Positions 1-30,069 of a DNA stretch of 32,000 bases are shown here, piece by piece. The stretch's first letter is position 1, and each line of letters opens with the position of its first letter. The notes beneath the pieces were generated by a model. The model was not told the DNA's origin and did no database searches. It saw only the letters and a program-made list of their open reading frames with translations. The DNA is from Cupriavidus necator (GTDB lineage Bacteria > Pseudomonadota > Gammaproteobacteria > Burkholderiales > Burkholderiaceae), in contig NZ_CP066019.1 in assembly GCF_016127575.1 (NCBI RefSeq), positions 2,850,001 through 2,882,000 on the forward strand, given 5' to 3'. The position numbers and the translations under genes were made by a program.

Positions 1-2214
1 AGCGTCGCCCAGATGCAGGGCCCGGCGGCCTTCGACGCAGGCCTGCTCAAGAGCCGCGCCGTGGTCGGTCCGGTGGTGGAGCGGCTGCGGCTCGATATCA
101 CCGCGCAGCCGCTGCGTGCGCCGCTGCTGGGCGCGCTGGTCCAGCGCTTTTCCACACCCGGCCAGCCGCGCGGCACCTGGCCTGCCAGCCTGGGCTATGC
201 CTGGGGCGGCGAGCGTCTGGTAATCGCCAGCATGACCGTGCCCGAGGCGCTGGTAGACCAGCCACTCACCTTCGAGGTGCGCAGCGACGGCCGCTACCGC
301 CTGATGCAGCAGGACACCTTGCTGCTGGAAGGGCGGGCCGGCGAGACTGCGATGGCCAACGGCATTGTGCTGCGCGTGGACAAGATCGAGGCCGGGCCCG
401 GTACGCGCTTCCAGCTCACGCGGCACGACCTGGCCCGCACCGCCGAGTCCGTGCGCCGCGGGCTCACGGTGGAAAGCGAACGCAGTGAAACCCCGGCGAG
501 CCTGGGCGGCGCGGCCGACCCCCTGACCGCGCCGGGCGGCACCGTGCGCGTGAGCTGGCAATACCCGGACCGCCAGCTTGCCGCCCAACTCGTCAACGGG
601 GTCACGCGCGCCTATATCGACGGCCAGACCGACAAGCGCCGCCAGGACGCGGCCGGCACGCTCGCGTTCCTCTCGGGCGAGCTGCCGCGCGTGCAGAGCG
701 AACTCACGCGCGCCGAAGAGGCGCTCACGCGCTACCGCGCGCGCACGGGTTCGCTGCAGCCCAGCCGCGACGCGCAGTCGTTCCTCAGCAACAGCATGGA
801 GTACCAGCGCCAGATCGCAGCGCTCAAGCTTGAGCGCACGCGGCTGCTCCAGCGCTTCACGCCCGAGGCCAACGAGGTCCGCACCGTCGACAGCCAGATC
901 CAGCAGATGACTCGCGAGCGCGCGGAGATCGACGCGCGTATGCAGACCCTGTCGGCCTCCGAGCGCGAATCGGTGGCGCTCACGCGTGACGTCAAGGTGG
1001 CCGAGGACATGTACATGTCCTTGCGCAGCAAGGTCGAGCAGCTGTCGCTGATGCTGTCCGACAGCTCTACCCAGATGCGCGTGGTCGATGCCGCGATCGC
1101 GCCGGTCACACCGGTCGGTCTCGGCGCGTGGCCGTTCGCCTCCGCCGGCGCCTTGCTCGGCCTGTGCCTGGGCGTGGCCGCGATCAACCTGCGCCAGCGC
1201 ATGCGCCCGTCGGTGGCCAGCGCCGCCGATGCGGAACAGCGCCTGGGCATGGCCATGCTGGGCGATATCGCCTTCAGCAACGAGCAGACCGAGCTGGAAC
1301 GGCTGGTCGAAGCCAAGCGCCGCCTGGGCATCGCTTCCGGCTTTGTGCTGCCGCCCAATGTGCGCCTCGGCCGGCCGGAGTCTGTCACCAGCGTGATCGA
1401 CGCCGCCACGGCCGCCGCGCCCGAGGACGAACGCGCGCGCGCCGAACGGCTGCTGCGCCAGGGCCTGCACGACCAGTTCCTGCTGGCGCGGCGCGCCCCG
1501 CATTCGCTTGCCGTGGAAGGCCTGCGCACGCTGCGGGCGGCGCTGCATTTCGCGTTGCGCGATGCACCCAACTGCGTGGTTGCGGTGACCAGCCCCGCCG
1601 CCAGCGCCGGCAAGACCTTCGCCGCGGTTAACCTCGCGGTGCTGTTCGCCGAAGCCGGCCAGCGCGTGCTGCTGGTCGACGCCGACCTGCGCCGCGGCCG
1701 CGTGGCGGACTGGTTCGACCTGCCTGCCGAGCCCGGGCTGGCAGAAGTGCTCGCTGGCCGCAGCGCGATCGCCGAAGCGGTCAAGCCGAGCGTGGTCAAT
1801 GGCCTGTTCCTGCTCAGCCGCGGCGCGGTGCCGGCCAATCCGTCCGAGCTGCTGATGCTGCCCGCGCTGGCGGAATCCCTGCGGCTGTGCGCGGGGCGCT
1901 TCGACCTGGTGCTGGTGGACACGCCGCCGGTGATGGCGGTGGCCGATGCCACGCTGGTGGCCAACTTGGCGGGTTCCACGCTGGTGGTGGTGCGCGCCGA
2001 TGTCACGGCGACGGCGCAGGTCGATGAAACCCTCAAGCGCCTGGCGCACGCCAATGCCAGGCTGGCCGGTGGCATCCTCAACGGTGTCATGCCCCGGCGC
2101 AGCAACCGGGCGGACTTCAATACCATCAATCCTTATCTGGGGATGCCGTTGCCACGAGCGGTAGCGAAGCCTCCCGCATTGGCCGGTCAAGCCGATCGGG
2201 TAGGGAAAAACTGA
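1..2214 (+). CDS. Polysaccharide co-polymerase / BY-type tyrosine autokinase family protein (Wzc/EpsB-like, paralog 1). 5' end cut by window edge; atypical C-terminus.
   Basis: The frame is open from nt 1 (ORF track 13..2214). LLKSRAVVGPVVERLRLDI aligns with LLRSRMVVGKAVDDLRLYI, roughly 100 residues into the other two Wzc-like proteins here, so the N-terminus is missing. Long coiled-coil periplasmic region, second TM (GAWPFASAGALLGLCLGVAAI), and a P-loop domain with Walker A SPAASAGKT, Walker A' VLLVDADLRRG and Walker B DLVLVDTPP. The last ~45 aa contain a single Tyr. Confidence 0.9.
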   Translation, partial: SVAQMQGPAAFDAGLLKSRAVVGPVVERLRLDITAQPLRAPLLGALVQRFSTPGQPRGTWPASLGYAWGGERLVIASMTVPEALVDQPLTFEVRSDGRYRLMQQDTLLLEGRAGETAMANGIVLRVDKIEAGPGTRFQLTRHDLARTAESVRRGLTVESERSETPASLGGAADPLTAPGGTVRVSWQYPDRQLAAQLVNGVTRAYIDGQTDKRRQDAAGTLAFLSGELPRVQSELTRAEEALTRYRARTGSLQPSRDAQSFLSNSMEYQRQIAALKLERTRLLQRFTPEANEVRTVDSQIQQMTRERAEIDARMQTLSASERESVALTRDVKVAEDMYMSLRSKVEQLSLMLSDSSTQMRVVDAAIAPVTPVGLGAWPFASAGALLGLCLGVAAINLRQRMRPSVASAADAEQRLGMAMLGDIAFSNEQTELERLVEAKRRLGIASGFVLPPNVRLGRPESVTSVIDAATAAAPEDERARAERLLRQGLHDQFLLARRAPHSLAVEGLRTLRAALHFALRDAPNCVVAVTSPAASAGKTFAAVNLAVLFAEAGQRVLLVDADLRRGRVADWFDLPAEPGLAEVLAGRSAIAEAVKPSVVNGLFLLSRGAVPANPSELLMLPALAESLRLCAGRFDLVLVDTPPVMAVADATLVANLAGSTLVVVRADVTATAQVDETLKRLAHANARLAGGILNGVMPRRSNRADFNTINPYLGMPLPRAVAKPPALAGQADRVGKN

Positions 2215-2387
2215 CGCATGCCAAAGCACGCCAGAAACCGCACCGCCATTTGTGTGGGTGTACCTGTTTCTGCGAGCGTTTGGCGGACGTTCTGAGCACA
2301 CGCATTGGTGTGAAAACGCACTGATGCGCGTGCGACGTTCAGGCTCAATAGGTCACCAAGGCGTTGTACCTCAACCTGGAGCCCACC

Positions 2388-2639
2388 ATGCGAGCAGCGA
2401 TACGCACCATACTTTTGGAAGTGGCCCGACTTGACGTACCAGTTGAATCGCTGGACGACCAGGCCGATCTATACGAAGCGGGACTGTCATCACTGGCAAC
2501 GGTGCAAGTCATGCTCGCGATCGAAAATACCTTCGGCATCGAGATACCTGACCGCATGCTGACTCGCCAGCTGTTCCGCAGCATCAGCACACTGGCTGCG
2601 GCGACCGAGCAGATCAAACAAGAGCAGGAGGCGGCATGA
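2388..2639 (+). CDS. Acyl/aminoacyl carrier protein (phosphopantetheine-binding, ACP-like), 83 aa
   Basis: Small acidic protein with a carrier-protein helix II motif, LYEAGLSSLATVQVMLAIENTFGIEIP (Ser in GLSSL is the putative 4'-PP site). ATG at 2388 is preceded by GGAG at 2378-2381; the track start at 2364 is a TTG. Its stop overlaps the next start (ATGA at 2636-2639). Confidence 0.8.
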   Translation: MRAAIRTILLEVARLDVPVESLDDQADLYEAGLSSLATVQVMLAIENTFGIEIPDRMLTRQLFRSISTLAAATEQIKQEQEAA

Positions 2640-3835
2640 GCCCGGTCCTCGCCAGCGTCGAGCAGGCCTTTCCGCGCGCAGAGACTGCTGACGCCGCACA
2701 CTTGCTGGCCGGAGCGCGCCTGGCCGCGGCAGAAGCAGCCAGGCATGCAGACCAGGTCGACGCCGATGCGTGTTTTCCGCACCAGGCGTTTGCAGTCTTG
2801 CGTGAGCAGAGGTTGCTGGGCGCCATGGTGCCGCCAGCCTGTGGCGGTGATGGCGCGTCGCTGGAAACGATCGCAGCGGTCTGCCGCGTGCTGGGCGGTG
2901 CCTGTGCCTCGACGGGAATGATCTACGCCATGCACCAGATACAGGTGGCATGCCTGGTCAATCATGCGAGCACCAGCTCGTGGCACGCGCAGCTATTGCA
3001 GCGCCTGGCCAGCGAACAATTGCTGCTGGCTTCGGCCACGTCCGAAGAGGCGATTGGCGGTGCCCTGCGCAGCAGCGGCTGCGCGGTCAACGCCGATGGC
3101 GGCAACCTGTACTTGCTCAAGATGGCTCCGACCATTTCCTATGGCGCCCATGCCGACGGGATCCTCGTCACGGCACGCCGCCATCCCGATGCCTCGCCAT
3201 CGGACCAGGTCATGGTAAGCGTGCTCAAGCCAGACTACGTACTGGAAAGTCTCTCCACCTGGGATACCCTGGGCATGCGCGGCACCTGCAGCAATGGATT
3301 CCGGCTGGAAGCCCGCGGGCATACCAATCAGATCCTGCCCGTGTCGTTCGGCGAGATTGCCGACGTCACCATGACCCCCGTGTCGCACATCTTGTGGTCT
3401 GCCTTGTGGACCGGTATCGCCGCGGATGCGGTTCAGCGCGCCAAGGTGCTGTTCCAGGGCCAGGCGCGCGCCCGGCCTGGCACGCTTCCGCCCTCGGCTA
3501 CGCGCGTGGCCGAAGCGGTTGCCATTATCCAGATGCTGGAGGGGCGGCTGGAACTGGCGTTGGCTCACCAACGCCAGCGTCATGCAAGCCAGAGTGTGTC
3601 GGCAATTTTCAACCTGGCGGCGGAAATGAACGGGCTCAAGACCAGCGTGTCGTCGCTGGCGCTCGAAGCGGTGCAAATCGCGATGCTGGTCTGCGGCATG
3701 GCGGGCTACAAGCATGGCACGCCGTTCAGCCTGGGACGCCACCTGCGGGATCTGTGGTCCGCCCCCTTGATGATCAACAACGATCGCATATTGACCAATA
3801 CCGCCAATCTGCTACTGGCGGACCGGTCCGCCTGA
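2636..3835 (+). CDS. Acyl-CoA dehydrogenase-fold flavoprotein, probably acting on a carrier-protein-bound substrate
   Basis: 399 aa. ACAD-like middle-domain motif WDTLGMRGTCSNGFRLE and a C-terminal helical domain ending GRHLRDLWSAPLMINNDRI (the counterpart of the RDa..i.eGt region). AGGAGG lies 6 nt upstream of the ATG. Translationally coupled to the carrier protein gene. Confidence 0.85.
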   Translation: MSPVLASVEQAFPRAETADAAHLLAGARLAAAEAARHADQVDADACFPHQAFAVLREQRLLGAMVPPACGGDGASLETIAAVCRVLGGACASTGMIYAMHQIQVACLVNHASTSSWHAQLLQRLASEQLLLASATSEEAIGGALRSSGCAVNADGGNLYLLKMAPTISYGAHADGILVTARRHPDASPSDQVMVSVLKPDYVLESLSTWDTLGMRGTCSNGFRLEARGHTNQILPVSFGEIADVTMTPVSHILWSALWTGIAADAVQRAKVLFQGQARARPGTLPPSATRVAEAVAIIQMLEGRLELALAHQRQRHASQSVSAIFNLAAEMNGLKTSVSSLALEAVQIAMLVCGMAGYKHGTPFSLGRHLRDLWSAPLMINNDRILTNTANLLLADRSA

Positions 3836-3845
3836 GGAGCCGTCC

Positions 3846-4850
3846 ATGGACGATACCAGCAACGCTTACGTGCCAGGCGACGACGCATCCGTTGCCCCGG
3901 GTGACCATTCTGCCATGGCCAGGCCGGCGCAGGATCCTGACACGGGCCGCCGTGCTTACCGGCAGGCGCTGATTGACGCCCGCGTGCTCTTTCCCTCGAC
4001 GGTCGATGGCATTTATGGCCGTAGCGGACTGTTCGAGAGTATTGCCGACGGCTTGAACTACGCCGTCAGCAAACTGGGCGCCGACCAGGACGCGGAGGTG
4101 ATGCGATTTCCTCCTGCCATGCCGCGCAAGGATTTCGAAGCGAGCGAGTATCTCAAGGGCTTTCCCCAACTGGCAGGGACGGTGCATTGCTTCTGTGGCG
4201 GCGATCGCGAACATCATCGACTCCTGGCGCGCCTGGAGCGCGGTGAGGAATGGGCCGATCAGCAGCAGCCCACCGATGTGGTGCTGGCGCCCGCGGCGTG
4301 CTATCCCGTCTACCCTGTGGTGGCCAGCCGCGGTCCGATGCCTCGGGAAGGGCTGGTGGTTGACGTGTTGACGTATTGCTTCCGTCATGAACCTTCGATC
4401 GACCCTGCACGCATGCAGATGTTCCGCCAGCGCGAATATGTCCGGCTCGGCACGGCCGAGCAGATCGTGGAATTCCGTCAACGTTGGATGGAACGTGGCA
4501 CGCAACTGGCCAGCCTGCTTGGCTTGCCGCATGAGGTTGACGTGGCGAACGATCCGTTCTTTGGGCGTGGCGGCAAGATCGTGGCCGACAGCCAGCGCGA
4601 GCTCAAGCTGAAGTTCGAGTTGCTGGTGCCGATCAATGATGGCGCGCCGCCCACGGCTTGCATGAGTTTCAACTACCACATGGACCATTTCGCGCACGCA
4701 TGGCCGTTGCGTACCGCGGACGGCGCGCCGGCGCACACCGGCTGCGTGGGCTTTGGCATCGAGCGCCTGACGCTGGCCTTGCTGCGTCACCACGGCTTCA
4801 AGCCGGCGAACTGGCCCCAGCGGGTGCGTGACGTGCTCGGAGGCATCTGA
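3846..4850 (+). CDS. Amino acid--[carrier protein] ligase: truncated SerRS-like class II aminoacyl-tRNA synthetase homolog without a tRNA-binding arm
   Basis: 334 aa. Class II aaRS motif 2 (YCFRHEPSIDPARMQMFRQREYVRLG) and motif 3 (GCVGFGIERLTLALLRHHG). The Cys in APAACYPVY could serve as an active-site Zn ligand as in methanogen-type SerRS. About 100 aa shorter than a bacterial SerRS, with no N-terminal coiled coil. GAGGAG RBS, 10 nt after the ACAD stop. Confidence 0.8.
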   Translation: MDDTSNAYVPGDDASVAPGDHSAMARPAQDPDTGRRAYRQALIDARVLFPSTVDGIYGRSGLFESIADGLNYAVSKLGADQDAEVMRFPPAMPRKDFEASEYLKGFPQLAGTVHCFCGGDREHHRLLARLERGEEWADQQQPTDVVLAPAACYPVYPVVASRGPMPREGLVVDVLTYCFRHEPSIDPARMQMFRQREYVRLGTAEQIVEFRQRWMERGTQLASLLGLPHEVDVANDPFFGRGGKIVADSQRELKLKFELLVPINDGAPPTACMSFNYHMDHFAHAWPLRTADGAPAHTGCVGFGIERLTLALLRHHGFKPANWPQRVRDVLGGI

Positions 4851-5031
4851 GACGGAGCGGCATTGAGACGTGAGCAGATGCCGCATCCATTCGGCCCATG
4901 CAGATGCAGTGCCGACCGATGCGCCTGGTGGTCCGCCCTGCATCGAACTTCTGCAGCCGCCCGGAGCAGCGAGGCATGCTCCGCGTGGCCAGCGTTCCAG
5001 CACGGGCAGGCTGTCACGGGAGAGGCAGTCC

Positions 5032-7599
5032 ATGAAGTCGCAAACTTATCCTGACACAAGCATTCTTGCGTCCGGTCAGCAAGCACTCCCCGGCGGCCGC
5101 CCGGGCGTTGCCATCGGCAGTACCGCGCTCGGCGGCGAGTGGACATGGGTGCAGACACCCGCCGGCGCGGCCGAAAGCCCCGCTGCATTGGATCCTGCCG
5201 CAGGCTGGCTGCCGGCCCCAGTGCCCGGCACGGTGGCCAGCGCGCTGCGCGCCGCCGGGCGATGGGACGACGCAATGCCGCCGCCATTGCACCAGTATGA
5301 CCATTGGTATCGTGTGAACTTTGCCGGCCGCGGCCGGCGCGTGCTGCGCTTTAACGGGCTCGCCACGGTGGTCGAAGCCTGGCTGAACGGAAAGCTTGTG
5401 CTGAGCGCGCGGCATATGTTTGTCGCTCATGAAGTCGAGGTCGACCTGGACGGCGACAACCTGATGCACCTCTGCTTCCGTGCGCTCCATCCGTGGTTGC
5501 GCAAGCAGCGCGGCCCGGTGCGGTGGAAGCCAAGAATGATCGTGCCACCAATCCTGCGGGCGATTCGCACGACCCTGCTTGGCCACATGCCGGGCTGGTG
5601 CCCGCCGGTCCATGCGGTTGGGCCCTGGCGGCCGGTGGAACTGCTTGACCCGGCCAGTGACGACATCCTGCATGGCGTGCGCGCTGATCTGTGGGGGCGG
5701 GTGCAAGGAGATCGCGGTGTGATTGGCCTGCACCTGCACTTCCCGGCATCCGCGCCAGCGTCTGGATCGTTCGAGGCCATCGACGGCGAGGGATGCATCT
5801 ATCCGGGCTCGCTGTCGCGTACCGACAGGTTCACACTCGAAGGCACAGTCTGCGTTGAACGTCCAAAGCTCTGGTGGCCGCATACGCACGGTGAACCCCA
5901 CCTCTACCGTGTGGATGCAACCATCGAGGGACGCGCCATCCACTGCGGACGGGTTGGCTTTCGCACCATATCATTGGATTGTTCAAGCGATGCCGGGGCC
6001 TTCGCACTGCGCATCAACGGAGAGCCGCTGTTCTGCCGGGGGGCGTGCATCTCCAGCAATGATCTGCACGGCCTTGCCGACACGGATGAAGCATCCCGGC
6101 ACTGGCTGGAGCTGGCGCGCCGGGGCGGGATGAACATGGTGCGGATCAGCGGCGTCACGTGCTATCCGGGCGCGGCCTTCTACCGGATATGTGACGAACT
6201 TGGCTTGCTGGTCTGGCACGATTTCATGTTCGCCAATTTTGATTATGGCAGCATCGGACCGGGCCTCGGCCTCACCGAGGACATCACGCGCGAAGTTGGC
6301 GACTGGCTAAGCGCCACCCTAACCCATCCGAGCATTGCCGTGCTGTGTGGCGGCAGCGAGGCAGAGCAGCAGGCGGCAATGATGGGCGTCTCGCGCAGCG
6401 ACTGGAAGCAGCCACTGTTCGACGAACTGATCCGGGGCTTGGTTGCCGCCAAGCGGCCGGACGTAGTGTATGTCGGCAATTCGCCAACTGGCGGCGCGTG
6501 GCCGTTCCAGCCGGACACTGGTGTGAGTCATTACTACGGCGTTGGAGCCTACCAGCGACCGTTGGCGGATGCGCGCTTGGCGCAAGTGCGCTTTGCTTCC
6601 GAATGTCTGGCATTTGCCAATGTGCCCTGCGAGCGCACGCTGGCGGAACACGGTTTGTCGCAGCCGCTGCATTCGCCCCGCTGGAAAGCCACAATACCCC
6701 GCGACGCGGGCGCACCGTGGGATTTCGAGGATGTACGTGAGTACTACCTGCGAACCTTGTACGAAGTGGATCCACCGCGCCTACGATATGAGCAGCCGCA
6801 GCGTTACCTGGTGCTGTCCCGTGCGGTGGTCGCGGAGGTGATGACAGAAGTCTTCAGCGAATGGCGCCGGGTCGGGTCAAGCTGTGCCGGCGGACTGATC
6901 TGGCAATTGCAGGATCTCGTGCCCGGAGCCGGCTGGGGCATCGTCGATGCGTGCGGGCGGCCAAAGTCGGCCTGGCATGCCCTGCGGCAGGTCTGGCAAC
7001 CGCTGCAGGTATTGATTACCGATGAAGGGCTCAACGGACTGCACGTGCATGCGATCAACGAAACGCCGCAACCGCACGCGCTGTCGCTGACGCTGCGCTG
7101 CCTGCGCGACGGCGAGACAGTTGTGGCCGAAGCCCGGCACAGCCTGTTATTGCCGGCGCGTGGCGCGGCGCGCATTGAAGCAGCGGCGCTGCTGGACCGC
7201 TTCTTCGACTTCACCTATGCGTATCGCTTCGGCCCGCCGACGCACGATGTGGTCGTGGTCACGCTGCATGCTGCCGACAGCGGCGAGCCGCTGAGCCAGG
7301 CCGTCTACCTTCCTGACCGCCGTGCCGCCGCGCTGAAGCCCCCCGGGTTGCGAGCCAGGCTCGAGCAAGTCGACGGTGACTGGTGGCTGACGGTATCCGC
7401 GCAGCGCTTCGCACGTTGGGTTCACATCGACGATCATGCCTTTCAAGCGACCGATAACTGGTTCCATCTCGCGCCCGGCAGCAGCCGGCGTCTGCGGTTG
7501 GTGCATGAGGCGGGGAAGGCTGGCGCGCACGCTCCCGCGATTCCTTCCGGCGAGATCCACGCGGTCAATGCGGAGCATCCACTTGGCTATGATGGCTGA
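5032..7599 (+). CDS. Glycoside hydrolase family 2, beta-mannosidase-like; no signal peptide
   Basis: 855 aa from ATG 5032 (GGGAGAGG upstream); the 54-codon extension to 4870 in the track is Arg/Pro-rich. GH2 beta-mannosidase-like blocks: PKLWWPHTHGEPHLYRV, GMNMVRISGV, LLVWHDFMFAN, VLCGGSEAEQ (acid/base region) and VRFASECLAFANVP (nucleophile region). Confidence 0.8.
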   Translation: MKSQTYPDTSILASGQQALPGGRPGVAIGSTALGGEWTWVQTPAGAAESPAALDPAAGWLPAPVPGTVASALRAAGRWDDAMPPPLHQYDHWYRVNFAGRGRRVLRFNGLATVVEAWLNGKLVLSARHMFVAHEVEVDLDGDNLMHLCFRALHPWLRKQRGPVRWKPRMIVPPILRAIRTTLLGHMPGWCPPVHAVGPWRPVELLDPASDDILHGVRADLWGRVQGDRGVIGLHLHFPASAPASGSFEAIDGEGCIYPGSLSRTDRFTLEGTVCVERPKLWWPHTHGEPHLYRVDATIEGRAIHCGRVGFRTISLDCSSDAGAFALRINGEPLFCRGACISSNDLHGLADTDEASRHWLELARRGGMNMVRISGVTCYPGAAFYRICDELGLLVWHDFMFANFDYGSIGPGLGLTEDITREVGDWLSATLTHPSIAVLCGGSEAEQQAAMMGVSRSDWKQPLFDELIRGLVAAKRPDVVYVGNSPTGGAWPFQPDTGVSHYYGVGAYQRPLADARLAQVRFASECLAFANVPCERTLAEHGLSQPLHSPRWKATIPRDAGAPWDFEDVREYYLRTLYEVDPPRLRYEQPQRYLVLSRAVVAEVMTEVFSEWRRVGSSCAGGLIWQLQDLVPGAGWGIVDACGRPKSAWHALRQVWQPLQVLITDEGLNGLHVHAINETPQPHALSLTLRCLRDGETVVAEARHSLLLPARGAARIEAAALLDRFFDFTYAYRFGPPTHDVVVVTLHAADSGEPLSQAVYLPDRRAAALKPPGLRARLEQVDGDWWLTVSAQRFARWVHIDDHAFQATDNWFHLAPGSSRRLRLVHEAGKAGAHAPAIPSGEIHAVNAEHPLGYDG

Positions 7600-7611
7600 C
7601 CGCCGAGCCGG

Positions 7612-7670
7612 GCGCCGTTGCTGTTGCGGCGCTCATGCCCCGGGATGCCCGCCGTAGAACATGGCGGGCA
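7612..7670. terminator. Two GC-rich hairpins in the 80-bp convergent gap; possible bidirectional terminator
   Basis: GCGCCG(7612-7617)/CGGCGC(7627-7632) with a 9-nt loop, and TGCCCGCC(7646-7653)/GGCGGGCA(7663-7670) with a 9-nt loop. They lie between the GH2 stop (7599) and the DUF1839-like stop (7680). No clear U-tract. Confidence 0.3.
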
Positions 7671-7679
7671 CCCCCGGCC

Positions 7680-8708
7680 CTATGCGCAGACTTGGTGGGA
7701 CGTGCCGAACGCCGACAGCAAGCCCTCCATGGTCCTGTCATAGCAGGACTCCAGCGTGTCCAGGCAATCCGTGCAGGAGTCCACCCGCCGGCGCGCGACC
7801 GCTCGAGCAAGCCGGAACTGCAAGACCTTACTCTCGGTCGCAATGCTGCGTGCGGCGTCAGCCACAGCCTTGGGCGCATTGTATTTTTGCTCGCTGAGCC
7901 AGGCCAGCCAGTGGTGCAGCATTTCGAAGTTGGCGCCGAGCTGACGCGGAAAATTGAAGGAGTACAGGTGGAAATAGGCGTCGTCACGCGCCAGCAGGGT
8001 ATCCATATGCTCGCCGAACACCTGTCGCCAGCAGGCCACCGGGTTGGCTGCAGGGCGTCTGCCCAGGTGGTAGCGCAGCAGGCCGACCGAAGCGTCGACC
8101 AATGCGGATGACGCGAGCGGCGGGCGCACGCGCTTAGCGCATTCGGCATAGGGGAACAAGATGTTGCCGTTGCCGCTGAGATCAGGGAGAAGCCGCAACA
8201 GGCCGCGATAGTTCTCCTCCTGCGCGCTGTGATAGCCGAGGCCGTGGTAGTACCAGAGGCGCTGCGCCTGGCCGTCAATGCGGTCAATGGCGACGGTGGT
8301 CTTGACGTGCTCGCGCCGGTACGCCGTGGCATGCGTGTCGGGCAGATAGTAGCTGTCGGCTTCGAGCAGCACGGTGTGACCGCGTTCGACCTGGGCCATG
8401 ACGTGCGCCTGGAGCGTGTCGTAGACCGCCATTTCTTGCACAACCGTCCCGTACAGCGTCTCCAGGTCCAACTGCGGATACTTGAAGAAGGTAAAGTGAT
8501 CACCCTCAAAGTCTTGCGCCACGGTAAAAGCCAGTCCCGCGCGCGGTTCGAGACCCCAGCGGTGGAGCAGTTCGACCCACAAGTCGATGTAGCAGTTGGT
8601 TTCCTGCCAGATGGCCTCGGCGCTATGCAGCGGGTGGGGATCCGCAATCGCCGGCAGGGTGGCGCCGAATCCGCCGCCGCCCTCGCTGCGTGCTGTGCTT
8701 GCCTTCAT
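7680..8708 (-). CDS. DUF1839-like protein (possible papain-fold / BtrH-like acyl-carrier-protein-dependent transferase)
   Basis: 342 aa from ATG 8708 (GGAGGA upstream); the longer track ORF to 8906 adds a junk-like extension. From memory, the N-terminal block AIWQETNCYIDLWVELLHRWGLEP...FTVAQDFEGDHFTFFKYP matches the DUF1839 family signature. No TM segment or signal peptide. Confidence 0.6.
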   Translation of the reverse strand: MKASTARSEGGGGFGATLPAIADPHPLHSAEAIWQETNCYIDLWVELLHRWGLEPRAGLAFTVAQDFEGDHFTFFKYPQLDLETLYGTVVQEMAVYDTLQAHVMAQVERGHTVLLEADSYYLPDTHATAYRREHVKTTVAIDRIDGQAQRLWYYHGLGYHSAQEENYRGLLRLLPDLSGNGNILFPYAECAKRVRPPLASSALVDASVGLLRYHLGRRPAANPVACWRQVFGEHMDTLLARDDAYFHLYSFNFPRQLGANFEMLHHWLAWLSEQKYNAPKAVADAARSIATESKVLQFRLARAVARRRVDSCTDCLDTLESCYDRTMEGLLSAFGTSHQVCA

Positions 8709-8996
8709 GTCCGGTCCTCCACATCTGTCATGTCCCAAGGCGTGGTCTGCCGGCCTGGGTGTGGACTCCAAATCTAGCGAGTTGGCCTTCGCTCTTCGGT
8801 GCGCTCTCCAACAGACTCGGAGGCCTTTCGGCTGGGTCGAGAGCGGTGCAGGGAGTGCTCCCTCGAGCGGCGGCCAAATGTGAGATAGCCAACGGTGCGA
8901 AGGCACACTTGCAGACAGAATTGCTCAAAGCTCCATCCGGATTCGCGTGCCAATGGATGGACAGCGGGCCGAAGAGCAACGCACCGGGAGCACGAC

Positions 8997-10112
8997 ATGG
9001 GGCAAAAGCTATCAACAGTGCAGTCGCTGCGCGCCATCGCGGCGACGGCGGTGGTCGCCTATCATTCGGCCGCCACGATAAGGATCTTCGGGTGGACGCC
9101 CGGTGCTCTCAGCCATGCGAGCGAGTGGGGATGGAGCGGCGTCGATATTTTCTTCTTCATTTCCGGGTTTGTGATGGTGGCCACGACCTCGGGCCGGCTT
9201 CGCGGAGCGCAGGCGGCAAAGGATTTCATGGTTGCCCGGCTCATGCGAATCGCACCGATGTACTGGATTCTCACCAGCCTGATGCTGGCAGTCGTGTGGG
9301 TGGTACCGAGTCTTAAGAATTCCGAGTTCACGGCGATGCAAATTGTGACCTCCTATCTCTTTATCCCATACGAGGTCAAAGAGCACGGTAACGCCTACCC
9401 GATTCTCTATGTCGGCTGGACGCTGGTCTATGAGATGTTCTTCTATGCGGTTTTCGCCATCTCGATCTGCTTCTCGGAGCGATGCATGCGTTGGGCCTTG
9501 CCCGCCTTCTTTGCAGGGCTTTCGGTACTGTCGCTCACCAGGCCAACGCTATATATCTTCAGGTTCCTGACCTCCCCCCTGCTGCTGGAATTCGTACTCG
9601 GCTGCCTGGTCGCCTGGCTCTACAAATTCGGCTATCGGATCTCCAGGCGGGCTTCTTTCTCCCTGATCGCGGCCGGAGTTTTCGGCTTCCTTGTGCTGAC
9701 CCCCGGTTCTTCGATGGAGGACAGAGTGGTCTTTGCGGGAATCCCCGCGGCGCTGCTGGTTTCCGGGATGGTGTTCTGGGAGAGCGCCGAGGGCTGGATA
9801 GGAGGTAGCTGGTTGCAGGGCATTGGCGATTCCTCATACTCGTTATATCTGTTGCAGGCCTTCACGGTTCCGGCATTTGCCCGGCTGTTCTCCGCGATGG
9901 ACAAGCACAGGGTCTTGCCAGGCGACATTGCATGCGTGTTGTTGGTGATTGCGACGATGATGGTTTCGTTGCTTACTTATCGACTTGTCGAGAAAAGAAT
10001 TGACGCAAAACTGGGCAAGCTTCGCCAGGGTCTTCGGAGAGTTCCTGCTTCCGGTAGCGGAAGACCGGAAGAGCCGGCGGCGCGGCCGGCAGGTCGAGAC
10101 CGAGGGGTATAG
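8997..10112 (+). CDS. Acyltransferase family 3 (OafA/YrhL-type) integral membrane O-acyltransferase
   Basis: 371 aa from ATG 8997 (GGGAG upstream). Typical N-terminus LRAIAATAVVAYHS...WSGVDIFFFISGFVM and about 10 predicted TM helices. Markedly lower GC than its neighbours. Confidence 0.85.
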   Translation: MGQKLSTVQSLRAIAATAVVAYHSAATIRIFGWTPGALSHASEWGWSGVDIFFFISGFVMVATTSGRLRGAQAAKDFMVARLMRIAPMYWILTSLMLAVVWVVPSLKNSEFTAMQIVTSYLFIPYEVKEHGNAYPILYVGWTLVYEMFFYAVFAISICFSERCMRWALPAFFAGLSVLSLTRPTLYIFRFLTSPLLLEFVLGCLVAWLYKFGYRISRRASFSLIAAGVFGFLVLTPGSSMEDRVVFAGIPAALLVSGMVFWESAEGWIGGSWLQGIGDSSYSLYLLQAFTVPAFARLFSAMDKHRVLPGDIACVLLVIATMMVSLLTYRLVEKRIDAKLGKLRQGLRRVPASGSGRPEEPAARPAGRDRGV

Positions 10113-11770: not shown

Positions 11771-12439
11771 TCACTGATCACGGATCCGGCGTGCCGTAAT
11801 CTGGTAGGTACCGGCAGTGATGAACTGCCGGTCCTTGGCGTTGGCGGAGACGCCGGTGTGAGAGTCGACAACGCAATCGGCACCGATTGTCACGCCTGGG
11901 TAGAGCGTTGCACGTGTCCCCAGGAAACACCGCGGTCCGACGGTGGCGTTGCCATTGAGGACCGCGTGAGGTGACAGCACAGAGCATGCGCCCGCCCGGG
12001 AACCATGGCCGATCCCGCTGAAGACATTGGCCACCACGCCATCCTCCACCAATGCGCCCCGACTGACGACAGTGAATGGAAAGATCAGTGCACCCACGCC
12101 CAGGCGGGCGGAAGGCGAGACAAGGGCCGTGCTGTGTACATACAGCGGAACCTCGATCCCGATTTGCAAGAGCCAAGACAGTACGTCCTGCCGTGCCTGG
12201 GTGGCAGCTATCGCGACCAGCACTGCCTGGTGCGACGCGGGGCGGAACTGACGTATCGGTCCCAGATGCGGCAGATCTATGCCGTCCGGAACCTTGCCCG
12301 GCCTGTCATCGATGAAGCCCGCTACAACCGGTCCGCCGCACAATGCTTCTGCCTGCAGATAATCATAGAGTTCCACCCCGAGCCCGCCGGCGCCGGCGAT
12401 GACCACTGAAGAGACGGCAGACGCGTGAACGAGTGGCAT
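11771..12439 (-). CDS. NeuD/PglD-family sugar N/O-acetyltransferase (N-terminal Rossmann-like domain plus left-handed beta-helix)
   Basis: 222 aa from ATG 12439 (GGAGGG about 10 nt upstream); the track start at 12520 is a GTG. VVIAGAGGLGVELYDYL N-domain, then hexapeptide-repeat C-terminus (GIGHGSRAGACSVLSPHAVLNGNATVGPRCFLGTRATLYPGVTIGADCVV). Confidence 0.8.
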   Translation of the reverse strand: MPLVHASAVSSVVIAGAGGLGVELYDYLQAEALCGGPVVAGFIDDRPGKVPDGIDLPHLGPIRQFRPASHQAVLVAIAATQARQDVLSWLLQIGIEVPLYVHSTALVSPSARLGVGALIFPFTVVSRGALVEDGVVANVFSGIGHGSRAGACSVLSPHAVLNGNATVGPRCFLGTRATLYPGVTIGADCVVDSHTGVSANAKDRQFITAGTYQITARRIRDQ

Positions 12440-12535: not shown

Positions 12536-14758
12536 CTAGGCCCGCTTGCTCTGTCCATTGCCGTATTCGGCGAGATAGCGATACTTGCCGAAGTAGTTGT
12601 GGGACCGGTACCAGCGTCCCTCGATCAGAAGGCCGTTGAAGAGCACGCCCTTGATGTCGGCGCCGGCCTGCTGGATGGCCCGTTGCGCCGCGATCAACTC
12701 GTCGGTGGTGGTCTTCTCGGCACGCGCGACGAGGAACACTACGCCAGCCTTGCTCGCCAGGATGCTCGCGTCGGCAGCGGCAAGCACTGGCGGGGTATCG
12801 ATCAGCACGAGGTCATAGCGCGATTTGAGTTGCTCAAGCAGGGAATCTATGCTGGAAGTCAGCAGCAAATCCGCCGCGTGTGGTGGTTGCGTGCCGGTCG
12901 AGATAAAGTCCAGGCCGGGCGCCACTTGCCGCTGCAAAACCTGTTCCAGCGGCGCGCCCATCAGCAGTTCGGTCAAGCCTGGCCCGCGCCTGGCATCAAA
13001 GAGGCTCTGCAGGCTGCCGCGGCGCAGGTCGGCATCGATAAGCACCACGCGGCTGCCAGCGGCGGCAATCGCGGCAAAGTTCGCGCAGACAAAGGATTTG
13101 CCGACGCCCGGGGCGGGCCCGGTGATCATCACCGTCCGACTATTGCTCCCAGCCATGGCGAAACGCAATGCCGTGCGGAAGCTGCGCAGACTCTCCACGG
13201 CCGGGTCGTCCGGCTGCTGTAGTGCCAGCAGGTTGCCGCCGGATGGCAGCTCTGACTGCTGCTTGCTGAAGGGGATGGTCGAATAGACGGTCATCCCTGT
13301 CTGCCTCTCGATCTCGTCCGCGTCGGCCACGCCGCCATCGAGCATATGGCGCATGAAGATCGCCAGCAGGCCGGCAAGCAAGCCCAGGGCCAGCGACATC
13401 CCCGCAATCATCGCCCGATCAGGCCGCACTGGTTTGAGCGGCACATCGGCCGGGTCGACAATCCTCGCGGTTCCCACTTTGCTTGCCTTGACCAGTTTCA
13501 GCTGCTGCACCTCGTTTAGCAGCGTCTGAAGCAACTCAGTGCTGACCTTGACGTCGCGCATCAGGCGAAGCACATTCTGTTCCACATCCGGCAGCTTCTG
13601 GATCCGCCCGGATACACCGTTCAGCTGGCCGTTCAGGCCGGCAATCTGGTTGTCGATGAGTGCGATCGCCGGGTGATTGGAGGTAAAGCGTGCAGCCAGC
13701 TCCTGGCGCTTCTGCTGCAATTCCTGAAGCTTGGTCTGGATCTGTACCGACTGGCCCAGGATCAGCTTGGACTCCTCGCTGAGGTCGATGGTGCCGCGTT
13801 GATTGCGCATCGCGTTATACCGGGTCTCGGCCACATCGACCTGCTGCCTGAGCAGCGGCAGTTGTCCCTCGAGAAAGGCCAGCGACTTCTCGGCTTCAGC
13901 GGCTTTGCGGCGGATGTTCTGGTCAACATAGGCGTTACCGATCTCGTTGAGGACAGCTGCCGTCATGTCCGGCGAGATTCCCTCCAGCGACACGCCGATC
14001 ACGCCGCTTTGCTTGCCACGCTCGCTGATCGCCAGCTTCTCCTGCAATCGCGTGATGGCCGCGCCGCGCGGCAGGCGACGGAGTACGAACTGGACACCGG
14101 GGCGTCCGTCGATCTGGCTGACCAGCATGGTGACCGTCCCGGTGGCCGTGCTGATCGTCAATGGCGATCCCACCTTGCCGGTAGCCTCGACATTGTCGCT
14201 GGCAAACCGCACCCTGTACGCGTCGTCACCCAGCGCGGTCAACGTGATCTTGCGTTCCTCCATGGGCGCTGGCACGTCGAGCTGGGCCACGGTGATCGAT
14301 TCATGGCCCCACGCGAAGCCGCCCCATCCAAACAGCCCCGGGTGCGACAGTTCAGGATTGAAATTGGCGATTGCCGGGCCAATCAGCGGGAAATAGCGCG
14401 GTGCGGCTTCGATATACAGACGCAGGTCGTCGACCGCCTTGCCGACTACCATCCGTGAGCGCAGGAGTTCGATCTCCGCAGAAGCCGCGGGTTTGACGTC
14501 GAAAGCCGGCGAGACGCCGGCTGCGAGCTTGCCTATCGAGTTACCGCTCGAGTCCTCCACTTGTACCGTCATGTCGGTGCGGTAGACCGGCTTTGCCAGG
14601 ATGGCGTAGATGAGACCGAGGCCGATGATGACTCCGGCGACGGACAGGAAGGTCCGTCGATAGCGGGCCAGCAAATCGAGATAGGAGGTGAGGTCCACTG
14701 CCGGCTCGCGCTCGTCCGCGCCAGCGGGGGCCTGGTATCGCGTACCGATCGGTTTCAT
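12536..14758 (-). CDS. wzc: Polysaccharide co-polymerase / tyrosine autokinase Wzc (EpsB-like), paralog 2, canonical
   Basis: 740 aa from ATG 14758, which overlaps the wzb stop (ATGA). Two TM segments flank a coiled-coil periplasmic domain. Walker A GPAPGVGKS, A' VVLIDADLRRG, B DLVLIDTPP. Tyr-rich tail: RWYRSHNYFGKYRYLAEYG. Confidence 0.95.
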   Translation of the reverse strand: MKPIGTRYQAPAGADEREPAVDLTSYLDLLARYRRTFLSVAGVIIGLGLIYAILAKPVYRTDMTVQVEDSSGNSIGKLAAGVSPAFDVKPAASAEIELLRSRMVVGKAVDDLRLYIEAAPRYFPLIGPAIANFNPELSHPGLFGWGGFAWGHESITVAQLDVPAPMEERKITLTALGDDAYRVRFASDNVEATGKVGSPLTISTATGTVTMLVSQIDGRPGVQFVLRRLPRGAAITRLQEKLAISERGKQSGVIGVSLEGISPDMTAAVLNEIGNAYVDQNIRRKAAEAEKSLAFLEGQLPLLRQQVDVAETRYNAMRNQRGTIDLSEESKLILGQSVQIQTKLQELQQKRQELAARFTSNHPAIALIDNQIAGLNGQLNGVSGRIQKLPDVEQNVLRLMRDVKVSTELLQTLLNEVQQLKLVKASKVGTARIVDPADVPLKPVRPDRAMIAGMSLALGLLAGLLAIFMRHMLDGGVADADEIERQTGMTVYSTIPFSKQQSELPSGGNLLALQQPDDPAVESLRSFRTALRFAMAGSNSRTVMITGPAPGVGKSFVCANFAAIAAAGSRVVLIDADLRRGSLQSLFDARRGPGLTELLMGAPLEQVLQRQVAPGLDFISTGTQPPHAADLLLTSSIDSLLEQLKSRYDLVLIDTPPVLAAADASILASKAGVVFLVARAEKTTTDELIAAQRAIQQAGADIKGVLFNGLLIEGRWYRSHNYFGKYRYLAEYGNGQSKRA

Positions 14759-18381: not shown

Positions 18382-19734
18382 ATGAGGCATATGACCCCGG
18401 AAGCCCTTTCCTGGCTACAGCGGATTCTGGCCGAGCGATTCGGCCATGGCTTTCACCTGCAAGCTGCTGGCGCGGACTTTGTCCACCTGTGCCTTGCTGG
18501 TTCCGGCCAGAGGTCGATTGAGATTGCCGCAGATCCCGGCACCTTCCGGCGCGCCGACTCTGAGCTCGCCTTCACGAGCTGGGACGCGCTTGCCGAGGGT
18601 TGGCAGCCGGCCCTCGGCAGTCCCTTGCCAGCGCCAGGCCTCGCGCGCGCACCGTCACCGCTGATCGAGGCGACCACTACCGGCTATCGCATCCACTATG
18701 ACGTTCTCGGTCTAAGCTACTGGATGCTGTCGCGCCAGGAGGAGGTCGGCCGCTCCGACCTCGACAGCTACGGTCGTTTCCCGGCCAGCGCGTCGCATGC
18801 CGGGAAACATGGCTATCTGGAGCGGCCGGTGGTGGACGAATGGCTGCATATCCTTGGCCAGGTGATCAGCCGGCTATGGCCCGAACTGCAGCTCAGGCAG
18901 CAGCGGGCCAGCATGAAGGTGTCGCATGACGTGGATGTGCCCAGCCGCTATGGCTTTGCCTCTGCGGCGAGAATCATCCGCCGCATGGCGGGCGACATAC
19001 TGATACGCCGGGACGTGAAAAGCGTGCTGCAGGCTCCCGTGATACGGCTTAAGACCCGGACCGCGCTGCATCCGACGGATCGGGTCAATACCTTCGACTG
19101 GATCATGGATGTTTCCGAGCGCCATGGACTGGTCAGCGCTTTCTACTTCATCTGTGGCTGTACCGACCCCAGCAAGGATGCCGACTACGAGCCCGAGCAT
19201 CCCGCCATATGTGGACTGATGCAGCGCATCCATGCCCGCGGCCACGAAATCGGCCTGCATCCGAGCTTCAATACCTATCGCGCCCCCGAAAAGCTCCAGG
19301 CGGAAGCAAAGCGGCTGCGGCGGATATGCGAGCAGGAGAATATCGAACAGGAAGCATGGGGCGGCCGCATGCATTACCTGCGCTGGGAACACCCCACCAC
19401 CATGCTTGGTTGGGAGCAGGCAGGCATGACCTACGACAGCACGCTCACCTACGCCGACCACGCCGGATTCCGCTGCGGAACCTGCTTCGAGTATCCGGCC
19501 TTCGACCCGGTCGCGGGAACGGCGCTGAACCTGCGCATCCGTCCGCTGATTGCGATGGAAGGCAGCGTCATTGGTTATATGGGGCTTGGAACCGGCGAAG
19601 CAGCCTGGAAGAAGTTCCGGGAACTGAAGGATACCTGCAAGGCGGTGAACGGCTGTTTCACGATGCTCTGGCATAACTCATCGCTCGGCAGTGCCGAAGA
19701 ACGGGATCTGTACCAGGCGGTGCTTGAGCACTGA
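18382..19734 (+). CDS. Polysaccharide deacetylase-like (CE4-fold) protein with an ~170-aa N-terminal extension
   Basis: 450 aa. MKVSHDVDVPS resembles CE4 motif 1 (metal/catalytic Asp pair), and GHEIGLHPSFNTY resembles the GHEIG.H motif 2 region. No signal peptide. The only + strand gene between two - strand operons. Confidence 0.5.
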   Translation: MRHMTPEALSWLQRILAERFGHGFHLQAAGADFVHLCLAGSGQRSIEIAADPGTFRRADSELAFTSWDALAEGWQPALGSPLPAPGLARAPSPLIEATTTGYRIHYDVLGLSYWMLSRQEEVGRSDLDSYGRFPASASHAGKHGYLERPVVDEWLHILGQVISRLWPELQLRQQRASMKVSHDVDVPSRYGFASAARIIRRMAGDILIRRDVKSVLQAPVIRLKTRTALHPTDRVNTFDWIMDVSERHGLVSAFYFICGCTDPSKDADYEPEHPAICGLMQRIHARGHEIGLHPSFNTYRAPEKLQAEAKRLRRICEQENIEQEAWGGRMHYLRWEHPTTMLGWEQAGMTYDSTLTYADHAGFRCGTCFEYPAFDPVAGTALNLRIRPLIAMEGSVIGYMGLGTGEAAWKKFRELKDTCKAVNGCFTMLWHNSSLGSAEERDLYQAVLEH

Positions 19735-27128: not shown

Positions 27129-27193
27129 TGCTGATCTCCTCTGCAGACGGCATTCGGGCAAGCCTGGCCACTGTCCCAGGCACCTCAGGCACC

Positions 27194-27775
27194 TCAGGCG
27201 GCAGCCTTGCGCAGCGTGGCGCCATCCAGGACGTAGCGTTGCCCGCTGTTCGGGCAGATGGCCTCACCCTCACCACGCACCGGCAGGTCGAGCTGCTCGC
27301 CGAATTCGCTCATCCAGCCGATCTGACGTGCCGGCACGCCGACCATCAGCGCGTAGGCGGGCACGTCCTTGTTGATGACAGCGCCGGCGCCGACGAAGGC
27401 ATATTCGCCAATCGCCACGCCGCAGACGATGGTGCAGTTGGCGCCCAGCGTCGCGCCCCGCTTCACCAGAGTGTCGCGGTACTCGCCCTTGCGCTCGATC
27501 AGCGAGCGAGGGTTATATACATTGGTGAACACCATGCTTGGACCGCAAAAGACGCCATCTTCCAGCGTGACGTTGTCGTAGACGGAGACGTTGTTCTGCA
27601 CCTTGACGTGGTCGCCGATGACGACACGGTTGCCAACGAACACGTTCTGGCCGAGCGAGCACTGCCTGCCGATGCGCGCGCCGGCGCAAACATGCGCAAA
27701 ATGCCAGACGCGCGATCCGTCTCCGATCTGTGCGCCCTCATCGATGACGGCAGATGGATGTATCTGGTAGGTCAT
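27194..27775 (-). CDS. wbpD: Hexapeptide-repeat N-acetyltransferase, WbpD-like (UDP-2-acetamido-3-amino-2,3-dideoxy-glucuronate N-acetyltransferase)
   Basis: 193 aa from ATG 27775. [36 protein letters not shown]... is a continuous left-handed beta-helix. Size and context match WbpD. Confidence 0.85.
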
Positions 27776-27782
27776 TAGAGCC

Positions 27783-30069
<2,287 letters not shown>

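Follow-up and report, generated by a model that had tools for sequence, protein, structure and literature searches.

The 32,000-nucleotide stretch of Cupriavidus necator DNA analysed here (NCBI RefSeq assembly GCF_016127575.1, contig NZ_CP066019.1, positions 2,850,001 to 2,882,000; in the following, the window) carries a block of five genes for a stand-alone carrier protein, a flavoenzyme of the acyl-CoA dehydrogenase (ACAD) fold, a seryl-tRNA synthetase (SerRS)-like ligase, a glycoside hydrolase of family 2 (GH2) and a DUF1839 protein. The exact sequence of the ligase is encoded on chromosome 2 of C. necator H16 (AM260480.1), near the start of that chromosome. We propose, at somewhat less than even confidence, that the five genes form an acyl-transfer module which is independent of tRNA and of nonribosomal peptide synthetases (NRPS) and which adds an amino-acid-derived group to the repeat unit of an exopolysaccharide or to a nucleotide-sugar precursor. 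Decoration of a polysaccharide is the best supported reading because of the likeness of the DUF1839 protein to the CcbD/CtaG type of enzymes and because of the statistics of the genes that neighbour the module.

By the proposed route the ligase would adenylate a small amino acid, glycine or alanine by analogy, and would attach it as a thioester to the carrier protein's phosphopantetheine arm. The flavoenzyme would then oxidise the carrier-bound aminoacyl group, either by oxygenation at the nitrogen or the alpha carbon, as in the DszC/nitrososynthase class, or by dehydrogenation of the amine to a 2-oxoacyl group. Judging from its predicted fold, its conserved residues and its genetic linkage, the DUF1839 protein would accept the acyl group on Cys39 and pass it on to a nucleophile on a sugar, and the GH2 enzyme, which is beta-mannosidase-like and apparently cytoplasmic, would handle the glycan part. 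In H16 the best candidate acceptor would be an amine that a VimE-like deacetylase exposes on a diamino-uronic acid of the Wbp pathway.

The ligase and its carrier protein

An earlier note on this DNA, made from its letters alone, had singled out the interval 2388-4850 as a tightly packed cassette of three genes for a phosphopantetheine-type carrier protein, an ACAD-fold enzyme and a tRNA-independent SerRS-like ligase, downstream of a Wzc-like gene. The packing was borne out in every detail. The carrier protein gene runs on the forward strand from ATG at 2388 to TGA at 2639, encodes 83 amino acids, has GGAG 5-6 nucleotides upstream and overlaps by ATGA (2636-2639) with the forward-strand open reading frame (ORF) of the 399-residue flavoenzyme (2636-3835, stop codon TGA at 3833-3835), which is preceded by AGGAGG. 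A gap of 10 nucleotides (3836-3845) with GAGGAG inside leads to the ligase ORF (3846-4850, forward strand, 334 amino acids), and family scans place the end of the Wzc-like gene at 2214. The three genes are real, but they are only the front of the five-gene module, which extends over the GH2 gene as its fourth member (5032-7599, forward strand, 855 amino acids) and the DUF1839 gene (7680-8708, reverse strand, 342 amino acids). A scan of positions 2000-9100 found no promoter-like sites, and terminator-like sites occurred there only at chance level.

The three protein assignments of the earlier note held as well. The 334-residue protein scores 525 bits against NF005479, the model of amino acid:[carrier protein] ligases (cutoff 357), as opposed to only 57-75 bits against models of methanogen-type SerRS, and its residues 16-332 align with PDB 4H2W/3MEY (Bll0957 of Bradyrhizobium japonicum) at E 1e-93. 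Ligases of this type are reportedly those described by Mocibob et al. in 2010 and 2013, namely Bll0957 and Bll6282 of Bradyrhizobium and Atu2573 of Agrobacterium, with the carrier proteins Bsr0959 and Atu2571. Class II motif 2 (FRHE, 179-182, with R180 and E182 invariant in 14 homologues) and motif 3 (GFGIER, 302-307, largely invariant in the same 14) are both present. The Pfam scan gave no match to Seryl_tRNA_N, and chains of methanogen-type SerRS align with the ligase only from about residue 141 on, at chain residues ~308-506 and thus with their C-terminal part; because the alignment begins there, the ligase has no counterpart of the N-terminal tRNA-binding region of SerRS. The putative zinc ligands C152, E197 and C300 are invariant in the 14 homologues and are the same residues in the aligned Bll0957, where we take them to correspond to C131, E176 and C279.

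The motif 3 region differs in one position: Gly302 aligns with an alanine of Bll0957 (HTGCVGFG versus HTGCVAFG). Glycine occupies this position in module-type ligases from about 80 of 87 loci, and the ligases of variant gene architectures carry alanine, as Bll0957 does. Presumably this residue, Ala281 of Bll0957, restricts the pocket to glycine, in which case a larger amino acid would be possible for a ligase with Gly302.

The carrier protein, encoded two genes upstream of its partner ligase on the same strand, matches PP-binding (E 6.5e-12) and scores 125 bits against NF005480 (cutoff 72). It is closest to Atu2571 of A. tumefaciens (2JQ4; E 1.4e-17, full length) and is also a full-length match to the carrier protein in 4H2W (E 1e-17), whose GLSSF aligns with the GLSSL that contains Ser35, the probable phosphopantetheine site; its similarity to DltC is weak. 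The family membership of both predicted proteins is secure, given their clear homology to Bll0957 and Atu2571, whose structures have been solved. By this close homology the ligase probably loads an amino acid on the carrier protein without tRNA, and glycine or alanine is the likely substrate; characterised ligase homologues use one or the other (PMC5370406). What the loaded carrier proteins are for was still called unknown in a review of 2022 (PMC9437257), in agreement with the earlier note, which had regarded their physiological role as unresolved.

The flavoenzyme and the glycoside hydrolase

The 399-residue protein matches Acyl-CoA_dh_N (E 9e-13), and its AlphaFold2 model (pLDDT 82.5, pTM 0.85, with low confidence past residue 380) has the ACAD fold that had been claimed for it. 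Its best NCBIfam matches, Rv1679/FadE16, SfnB and DszC, all lie far below their cutoffs. The top 13 Foldseek matches of the model belong to the flavin monooxygenase class (TdsC/DszC, KijD3, nitrososynthase, DnmZ; TM-scores 0.72-0.79), by a slight margin in E-value (1.6e-15 versus ~1e-13 for short-chain acyl-CoA dehydrogenase, SCAD); SCAD and other acyl-CoA dehydrogenases match with TM-scores of 0.70-0.75, which shows that the three-domain ACAD fold is present. The profile search ranks SCAD (7P98) first with E 1.3e-20, followed by DnmZ and DszC at 2e-17. Full-length matches of ACAD type 2 to PDB entries 5GJ7 and 5Z8T could be traced to no paper.

The profile alignments to SCAD end at R371-D372. 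A gapless count from there puts Ile380, within the invariant or nearly invariant PLMINND, at the position of the catalytic glutamate of medium-chain acyl-CoA dehydrogenase (MCAD) and SCAD, an assignment that follows the sequence register in a part where the model is of low confidence. The enzyme thus appears to lack the canonical catalytic glutamate, which makes canonical alpha,beta-dehydrogenation unlikely; on glycine this reaction would be impossible anyway. The prolyl-carrier-protein dehydrogenases RedW, PigA and AnaB were considered as a model and rejected, as they gave only weak matches to the N-terminal domain. Neither the window nor the annotated conserved neighbour families of the 80 loci described below include a flavin reductase partner; the reductases of such monooxygenases are often encoded elsewhere.

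The GH2 protein (Pfam Glyco_hydro_2_N2, Ig_mannosidase, Glyco_hydro_2) aligns end to end with the Xanthomonas beta-mannosidase 6BYE (E 4.5e-36). The two catalytic glutamates, acid/base E443 and nucleophile E524, fall on the N-E and S-E-Y-G motifs of 6BYE, and all 66 of 66 orthologues have both. In 65 of these 66 the asparagine that precedes the acid/base glutamate in clan GH-A is replaced by a serine (Ser442; codons 442-443 at 6355-6360), a possible sign that the predicted substrate carries an unusual substituent at C2. The N-terminal sequence shows no evident signal peptide.

DUF1839, the candidate transferase

The DUF1839 protein matches PF08893 at E 1e-146, and its AlphaFold2 model, built with 39 homologues, has an average pLDDT of 87.4. 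In the PDB, Foldseek matches this model significantly only to AziU3 (azinomycin), CtaG (closthioamide) and CcbD (celesticetin), all consisting of an N-terminal papain-like and a C-terminal helical domain (E 2e-7 to 1e-4, TM-scores 0.51-0.59). These matches are full length, with 328-380 aligned columns, and the next one follows at E ~0.1. The papain-like ligase CtaG carries a Cys11-His128-Asp144 triad, acts by a ping-pong mechanism on carrier-protein-bound substrates and has AsbE and BtrH as structural homologues (PMC12865890). CcbD/LmbD uses a Cys-His-Glu triad to transfer a carrier-protein-bound prolyl group to the amine of an amino sugar (PMC12945683). For DUF1839 itself a papain-like model with a rearranged C-(T/S)-H site has been published (Ozhelvaci and Steczkiewicz 2023, PMC10318531).

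Cys39, Asp42, Asp118, Asp124, His134 and His155 are at least 94% conserved in 110 DUF1839 representatives with 29-50% identity to the window protein, and the spacing of 116 residues between Cys39 and His155, a putative catalytic pair, compares with 117 in CtaG. A profile of 39 DUF1839 sequences found no chain of CtaG, CcbD or AziU3 among the PDB sequences at E up to 10. When 1.84 billion representatives were searched by profile, the best 150 of 991 matches were all plain DUF1839 proteins, with no bridge to AsbE, BtrH or DUF6005. As a link at the level of sequence is missing, the assignment is built on the fold, on residue conservation and on the tight genetic linkage to a carrier protein. On these grounds we propose that DUF1839 proteins may be papain-like, carrier-protein-dependent transacylases with Cys39 as the nucleophile, and that DUF1839 is likely the transferase of the module.

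A second DUF1839 gene lies in AM260480.1 just upstream of the window (3637-4620 of the H16 locus L001), upstream also of the Crp-family regulator and the first Wzc gene. Its product is 43% identical to the window copy and keeps the cysteine of the NC(H/Y)IDLW motif.

Conservation and gene neighbourhood of the module

The module was followed through 80 loci from different species, which were fetched by way of the ligase alignment and searched with the window proteins; for the survey of neighbours, ORFs were called in these loci and clustered, and representatives were annotated by Pfam, within a distance of 10 kb. The ACAD-fold enzyme and the ligase are present in all 80 loci; 78 of these also have the carrier protein, 73 have DUF1839 and 68 have GH2. 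Carrier protein, ACAD-fold enzyme and ligase keep this order, on a shared strand, in 78 to 80 of the 80 loci, which is not a chance arrangement, and the recurrence of DUF1839 and GH2 makes the unit one of five genes rather than three. Their usual order is carrier protein, ACAD-fold enzyme, ligase, DUF1839 and GH2 on a single strand; in H16 the GH2 gene precedes an inverted DUF1839 gene.

A block of GH2, DUF1839, amino acid:acyl carrier protein (ACP) ligase, ACAD and ACP genes had already been noted in proteobacteria (PMC10318531, supplement 3), and Ozhelvaci and Steczkiewicz (2023) proposed for it a role in fatty-acid/phospholipid or glycan processing (PMC10318531). The cassette is an additional member of a known, structurally characterised family and, since the block as a whole had been described, is less novel than the earlier note rated it.

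At least 52 of the 80 loci contain a hallmark gene of polysaccharide synthesis within 10 kb, and the cassette is thus not mostly found outside polysaccharide loci. The neighbours include genes for an initiating sugar-phosphate transferase (37 loci), a Crp-family regulator (34), a tandem alpha/beta hydrolase (22), a GNAT protein (20), GT4 (19), Wza (16), ManC and GT2 (15 each), a Wzy-like protein (13) and a VpsR-type sigma-54 activator (11). The tandem hydrolase follows GH2 in its 22 loci, among them those of B. pseudomallei and Azospirillum. In Sphingomonas (L016, L017, L028 and L066) a member of the same family of ~600 amino acids follows the trio of carrier protein, ACAD-fold enzyme and ligase in place of DUF1839 and GH2, in a locus that also holds Wza-like, Wzx, GMC oxidoreductase and WecG genes. 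In other C. necator strains, a trio without DUF1839 and GH2 adjoins the gene of a PglD/NeuD-type N-acyltransferase, 55% identical to the product of 11771-12439 in the window. Such trios, lacking DUF1839 and lying either beside a PglD-type amino-sugar N-acyltransferase or within the Wzx/WecG/Wza locus of Sphingomonas, count for the polysaccharide reading.

Two side observations belong here. The trios of the other C. necator strains (L088, 8526-11748, and L006) are paralogous to that of the window, with a ligase that is ~70% identical and has CAAFG for CVGFG; they adjoin a PglD-like hexapeptide transferase and a P450-reductase fusion, and no polysaccharide genes lie nearby. The GNAT gene encodes 181 amino acids and occurs in L019, L020, L023 and 17 other loci of Paraburkholderia, Caballeronia and Burkholderia, where it is mostly divergent from the carrier protein gene (~300 bp upstream of it in L019); this acetyltransferase could act on the aminoacyl group at its free amine.

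The polysaccharide locus of the window and its candidate acceptor

Family scans establish that the window region is a Wzx/Wzy-type polysaccharide locus, the setting in which the earlier note had placed the cassette: it contains genes for two Wzc proteins, Wzb, Wza, Wzx, a Wzy-like protein and two GT4 glycosyltransferases, and further for a small sugar-phosphate transferase, Acyl_transf_3, PAP2 and two hexapeptide transferases. Four genes of Wbp families (26013-30069, reverse strand) belong to the families that make UDP-2,3-diacetamido-2,3-dideoxy-glucuronic acid. WbpB matches 3OA2 at E 7.7e-170 and WlbB/WbpD matches 3MQG at E 2.5e-96; the WbpE-like DegT aminotransferase and the WbpA-like UDP-sugar 6-dehydrogenase were assigned at the family level. 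A forward-strand gene at 18382-19734 encodes a VimE-like sugar N-deacetylase (DUF7033, E 1.6e-29). It aligns near full length with NF053580, which is titled 'UDP-2,3-diacetamido-2,3-dideoxy-glucuronate deacetylase VimE' (E 5.6e-42), and scores 144 bits against a cutoff of 440.

In Porphyromonas and Tannerella, Wbp enzymes together with VimE and VimA lead to 2-N-seryl or 2-N-glycyl 3-N-acetyl-hexuronic acid (PMC7468200). The scanned ORFs of the window include no VimA-like gene. In H16 specifically, the VimE-like deacetylase could expose a free amine on the sugar of the Wbp pathway, and the carrier-protein module could supply the acyl group in place of VimA, which suggests a C. necator polysaccharide with a partly deacetylated or re-acylated 2,3-diamino-uronic acid. 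As general partners of the module the Wbp and VimE genes were rejected, since no homologue of DegT, WbpB or DUF7033 lies within 10 kb in the other 80 loci.

Directly upstream of the cassette and on the same strand lies the gene of a Wzc-type tyrosine autokinase/co-polymerase (13-2214; WZC_N, GNVR, AAA_31; TIGR01007 above cutoff), which is cut by the window start; the full gene encodes 812 amino acids and is preceded by that of a Crp-family regulator. A PglD/NeuD/VioB-type hexapeptide sugar N-acyltransferase (11771-12439, reverse strand; PglD_N, Hexapep; TIGR03570 E 8e-38) may be another enzyme that draws on the loaded carrier protein. The Wzc-type tyrosine kinase genes at 13-2214 and 12536-14758 lie on opposite strands, and Wzb and Wza accompany the second only, so that the window looks like two polysaccharide sub-clusters joined together. 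At 9001-10000, where the Acyl_transf_3 gene lies (8997-10112), the GC content drops to 0.57, as against ~0.63 on either side; the gene is found with the module in just 3 of the 80 loci and may be a separate acquisition. Between the VimE-like and the Wzy-like gene, an ORF of 509 codons (19822-21351, reverse strand) encodes a protein with a hydrophobic, signal-like N-terminus and without any Pfam or NCBIfam match.

The module beside the Bep cluster of Burkholderia cenocepacia

In B. cenocepacia (L083, 4459-20975) the module lies between the gene of a VpsR-type activator and those of two Crp-type regulators, and ManC, beta-helix and Wzc genes adjoin. For the biofilm polysaccharide Bep, berB corresponds to Bcam1342, berA to Bcam1349 and the bep genes to Bcam1330-1341 (PMC5552954); with the gene order taken from a different strain, the five module genes and one Crp paralogue would fill the six positions between berB and berA. 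Bep has been described as a neutral polysaccharide with a Gal-Glc-Gal-Man repeat after extraction with 0.3 M NaOH and nuclear magnetic resonance (NMR) spectroscopy in NaOD (PMC7084887). Base-labile esters on Bep would have escaped detection because of the alkaline extraction and the NMR in NaOD. Our literature search found no paper on Bcam1343-1348 or H16_B0014-19, and the papers on C. necator exopolysaccharide and biofilm omit the H16 locus.

Weighing the readings

The earlier note had suggested an NRPS-independent route to an acyl group that decorates a polysaccharide; the fold of DUF1839 and the setting of at least 52 of the 80 loci support this, though it is unproven. Several points speak against it. 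No substituent of the proposed kind has been reported on any polysaccharide of organisms that carry the module, and Bep is described as a plain repeat. The acceptor considered for H16 cannot be the general one, because Wbp- and VimE-like genes are absent near the module in the other 80 loci. DUF1839 cannot be tied to CtaG or CcbD by sequence, and its TM-scores reach only ~0.55. For the predicted ACAD-fold step, Foldseek hardly separates monooxygenases from dehydrogenases, and the proposal leaves GH2 without a defined role. Finally, about 28 of the 80 loci, for example that of Azospirillum, have no recognisable polysaccharide gene within 10 kb.

The last point leads to the main rival, which we regard as unlikely but worth serious weight: that the module does not serve a polysaccharide at all but makes or modifies a small glycoside or a signal molecule, or aminoacylates lipid A, a membrane lipid or a protein after the model of AlmEFG, and that its position in polysaccharide loci reflects common control by regulators of the Crp or the cyclic di-GMP (c-di-GMP) type. 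Such a product would suit Azospirillum, where the module is followed by the tandem alpha/beta hydrolase and two M20 peptidases, and it would account for the Crp-type regulators that adjoin the module in 34 loci, even where polysaccharide genes are lacking. That the five genes move as a self-contained block and that all five proteins appear cytoplasmic would fit as well. However, polysaccharide genes are by far the commonest neighbours, headed by the sugar-phosphate transferase and continued by GT4, Wza, ManC, GT2 and Wzy; the cassette has a glycoside hydrolase as a conserved partner, an amino-sugar acylase is among the nearest structural relatives of DUF1839, and the module shows no linkage to an acyltransferase for lipid A or other lipids.

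It is also conceivable, though rather doubtful, that the pathway is as proposed and the transferase another, namely the PglD-type protein in H16 and the tandem alpha/beta hydrolase elsewhere, with DUF1839 as a proofreading thioesterase or amidase that trims together with GH2. The pairing of DUF1839-less trios with a PglD-like transferase or an alpha/beta hydrolase points this way, as does the weak similarity of the window hexapeptide transferases to LpxA and LpxD, which use acyl-ACP. Papain-like folds are, moreover, mostly those of hydrolases, and DUF1839 co-occurs with the hydrolase GH2. Yet only 2 of the 80 loci have a PglD-like gene with the module, as compared to 73 with DUF1839, and the significant full-length structural matches of DUF1839 are all biosynthetic enzymes (AziU3, CtaG, CcbD) and none a hydrolase.

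The closest analogy drawn in the earlier note, to ZmaJ/ZmaH/ZmaG-I, by which the trio would make an aminomalonyl- or hydroxymalonyl-type extender through oxidation of a seryl-carrier protein by ACAD-type dehydrogenases, is not supported and is highly improbable: although the logic of a stand-alone carrier protein that is loaded with an amino acid and then met by an ACAD-fold enzyme is shared and SerRS is ancestral to the ligase, the module has one ACAD-fold gene where the Zma pathway has two, the gapless reading puts Ile380 in place of the catalytic glutamate, the model is marginally nearer to flavin monooxygenases, no polyketide synthase or NRPS gene occurs in the window or in the recurring neighbour families that were annotated for the 80 loci, and characterised ligase homologues use glycine or alanine (PMC5370406).

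Beyond decoration of a polysaccharide by the module as such, we tentatively advance a wider view, in which we place less confidence: amino acid:carrier protein ligases would feed a c-di-GMP-regulated carrier-protein route that decorates biofilm exopolysaccharides with glycyl or alanyl groups or an oxidised form of these, DUF1839 proteins would be a new family of glycan transacylases like CcbD and CtaG, H16 would make an N-acylated 2,3-diamino-uronic acid without the VimA-type enzyme of the Bacteroidetes, and Burkholderia would possibly carry a base-labile substituent on Bep, lost so far in the alkaline extraction. The enzymology and structures of these ligases have been known since 2010, and their purpose is now framed for two tractable organisms, C. 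necator H16 and B. cenocepacia H111, with a candidate transferase (DUF1839), a candidate acceptor (the deacetylated Wbp sugar) and a reason why the substituent may have been missed (the alkaline extraction of Bep). If true, this would give a function to the DUF1839 family, which comprises ~1,000 clusters at 50% identity.

Comparison with known systems

The ligase and the carrier protein belong to the same families as Bll0957, Atu2573 and their carrier proteins, and the positions of the zinc ligands and the class II motifs are kept; different from Bll0957 are Gly302 in place of alanine, the host and the genomic setting. Compared with the block described in 2023, H16 shows the order ligase, GH2 and inverted DUF1839 instead of ligase, DUF1839 and GH2, and the 2023 paper draws no tie of DUF1839 to CcbD/CtaG or to loci of the Bep type (PMC10318531). 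The tie to the CtaG/CcbD transacylases is new here, as are the survey of polysaccharide neighbours, the position beside the Bep genes, the apparent lack of the catalytic glutamate in the ACAD-fold enzyme and the Wbp and VimE-like genes of H16.

The first of these, the tie of DUF1839, concerns the papain-like, carrier-protein-dependent amide ligases CcbD/LmbD of the lincosamides, CtaG, BtrH of butirosin and AsbE of petrobactin, which DUF1839 resembles in its predicted fold and in the spacing of cysteine and histidine. The linkage of its gene to that of a stand-alone carrier protein is a further likeness, and CcbD and BtrH have amino sugars as their acceptors. One difference lies in the acyl donor, which would be loaded by an enzyme like an aminoacyl-tRNA synthetase (aaRS) and not by an A-domain or an ATP-grasp enzyme.

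DszC/TdsC, KijD3 and the nitrososynthases ORF36 and DnmZ are the best Foldseek matches of the second cassette protein, have comparable profile scores, and share with it the apparent absence of the catalytic glutamate. It differs from them in sequence (~20% identity), in having no linked flavin reductase and in its presumed carrier-protein-bound substrate, and acyl-CoA dehydrogenases score almost as well against it.

With the Wbp/Vim pathway of Porphyromonas and Tannerella, H16 has WbpB, WlbB, WbpA-like, WbpE-like and VimE-like proteins in common, and the product would be of the same class, an aminoacyl-amide amino sugar. In contrast to that pathway, no transferase of the VimA type (FemAB/GNAT-like) is found among the window ORFs scanned, and the VimE-like protein falls below the equivalog cutoff.

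DltA and DltC serve the synthesis of D-alanyl teichoic acids, and AlmE, AlmF and AlmG place glycine on the lipid A of Vibrio. Like these systems, the module would load a small amino acid on a dedicated carrier protein and then transfer it to a glycopolymer of the cell surface. Different from Dlt and Alm, however, it uses a class II aaRS core rather than an enzyme of the ANL superfamily, has no membrane transferase of the DltB/AlmG type and contains an additional flavoenzyme. If our proposal is true, the module would represent a third route for the aminoacylation of cell-surface glycopolymers, beside Dlt/Alm and FemAB/VimA.

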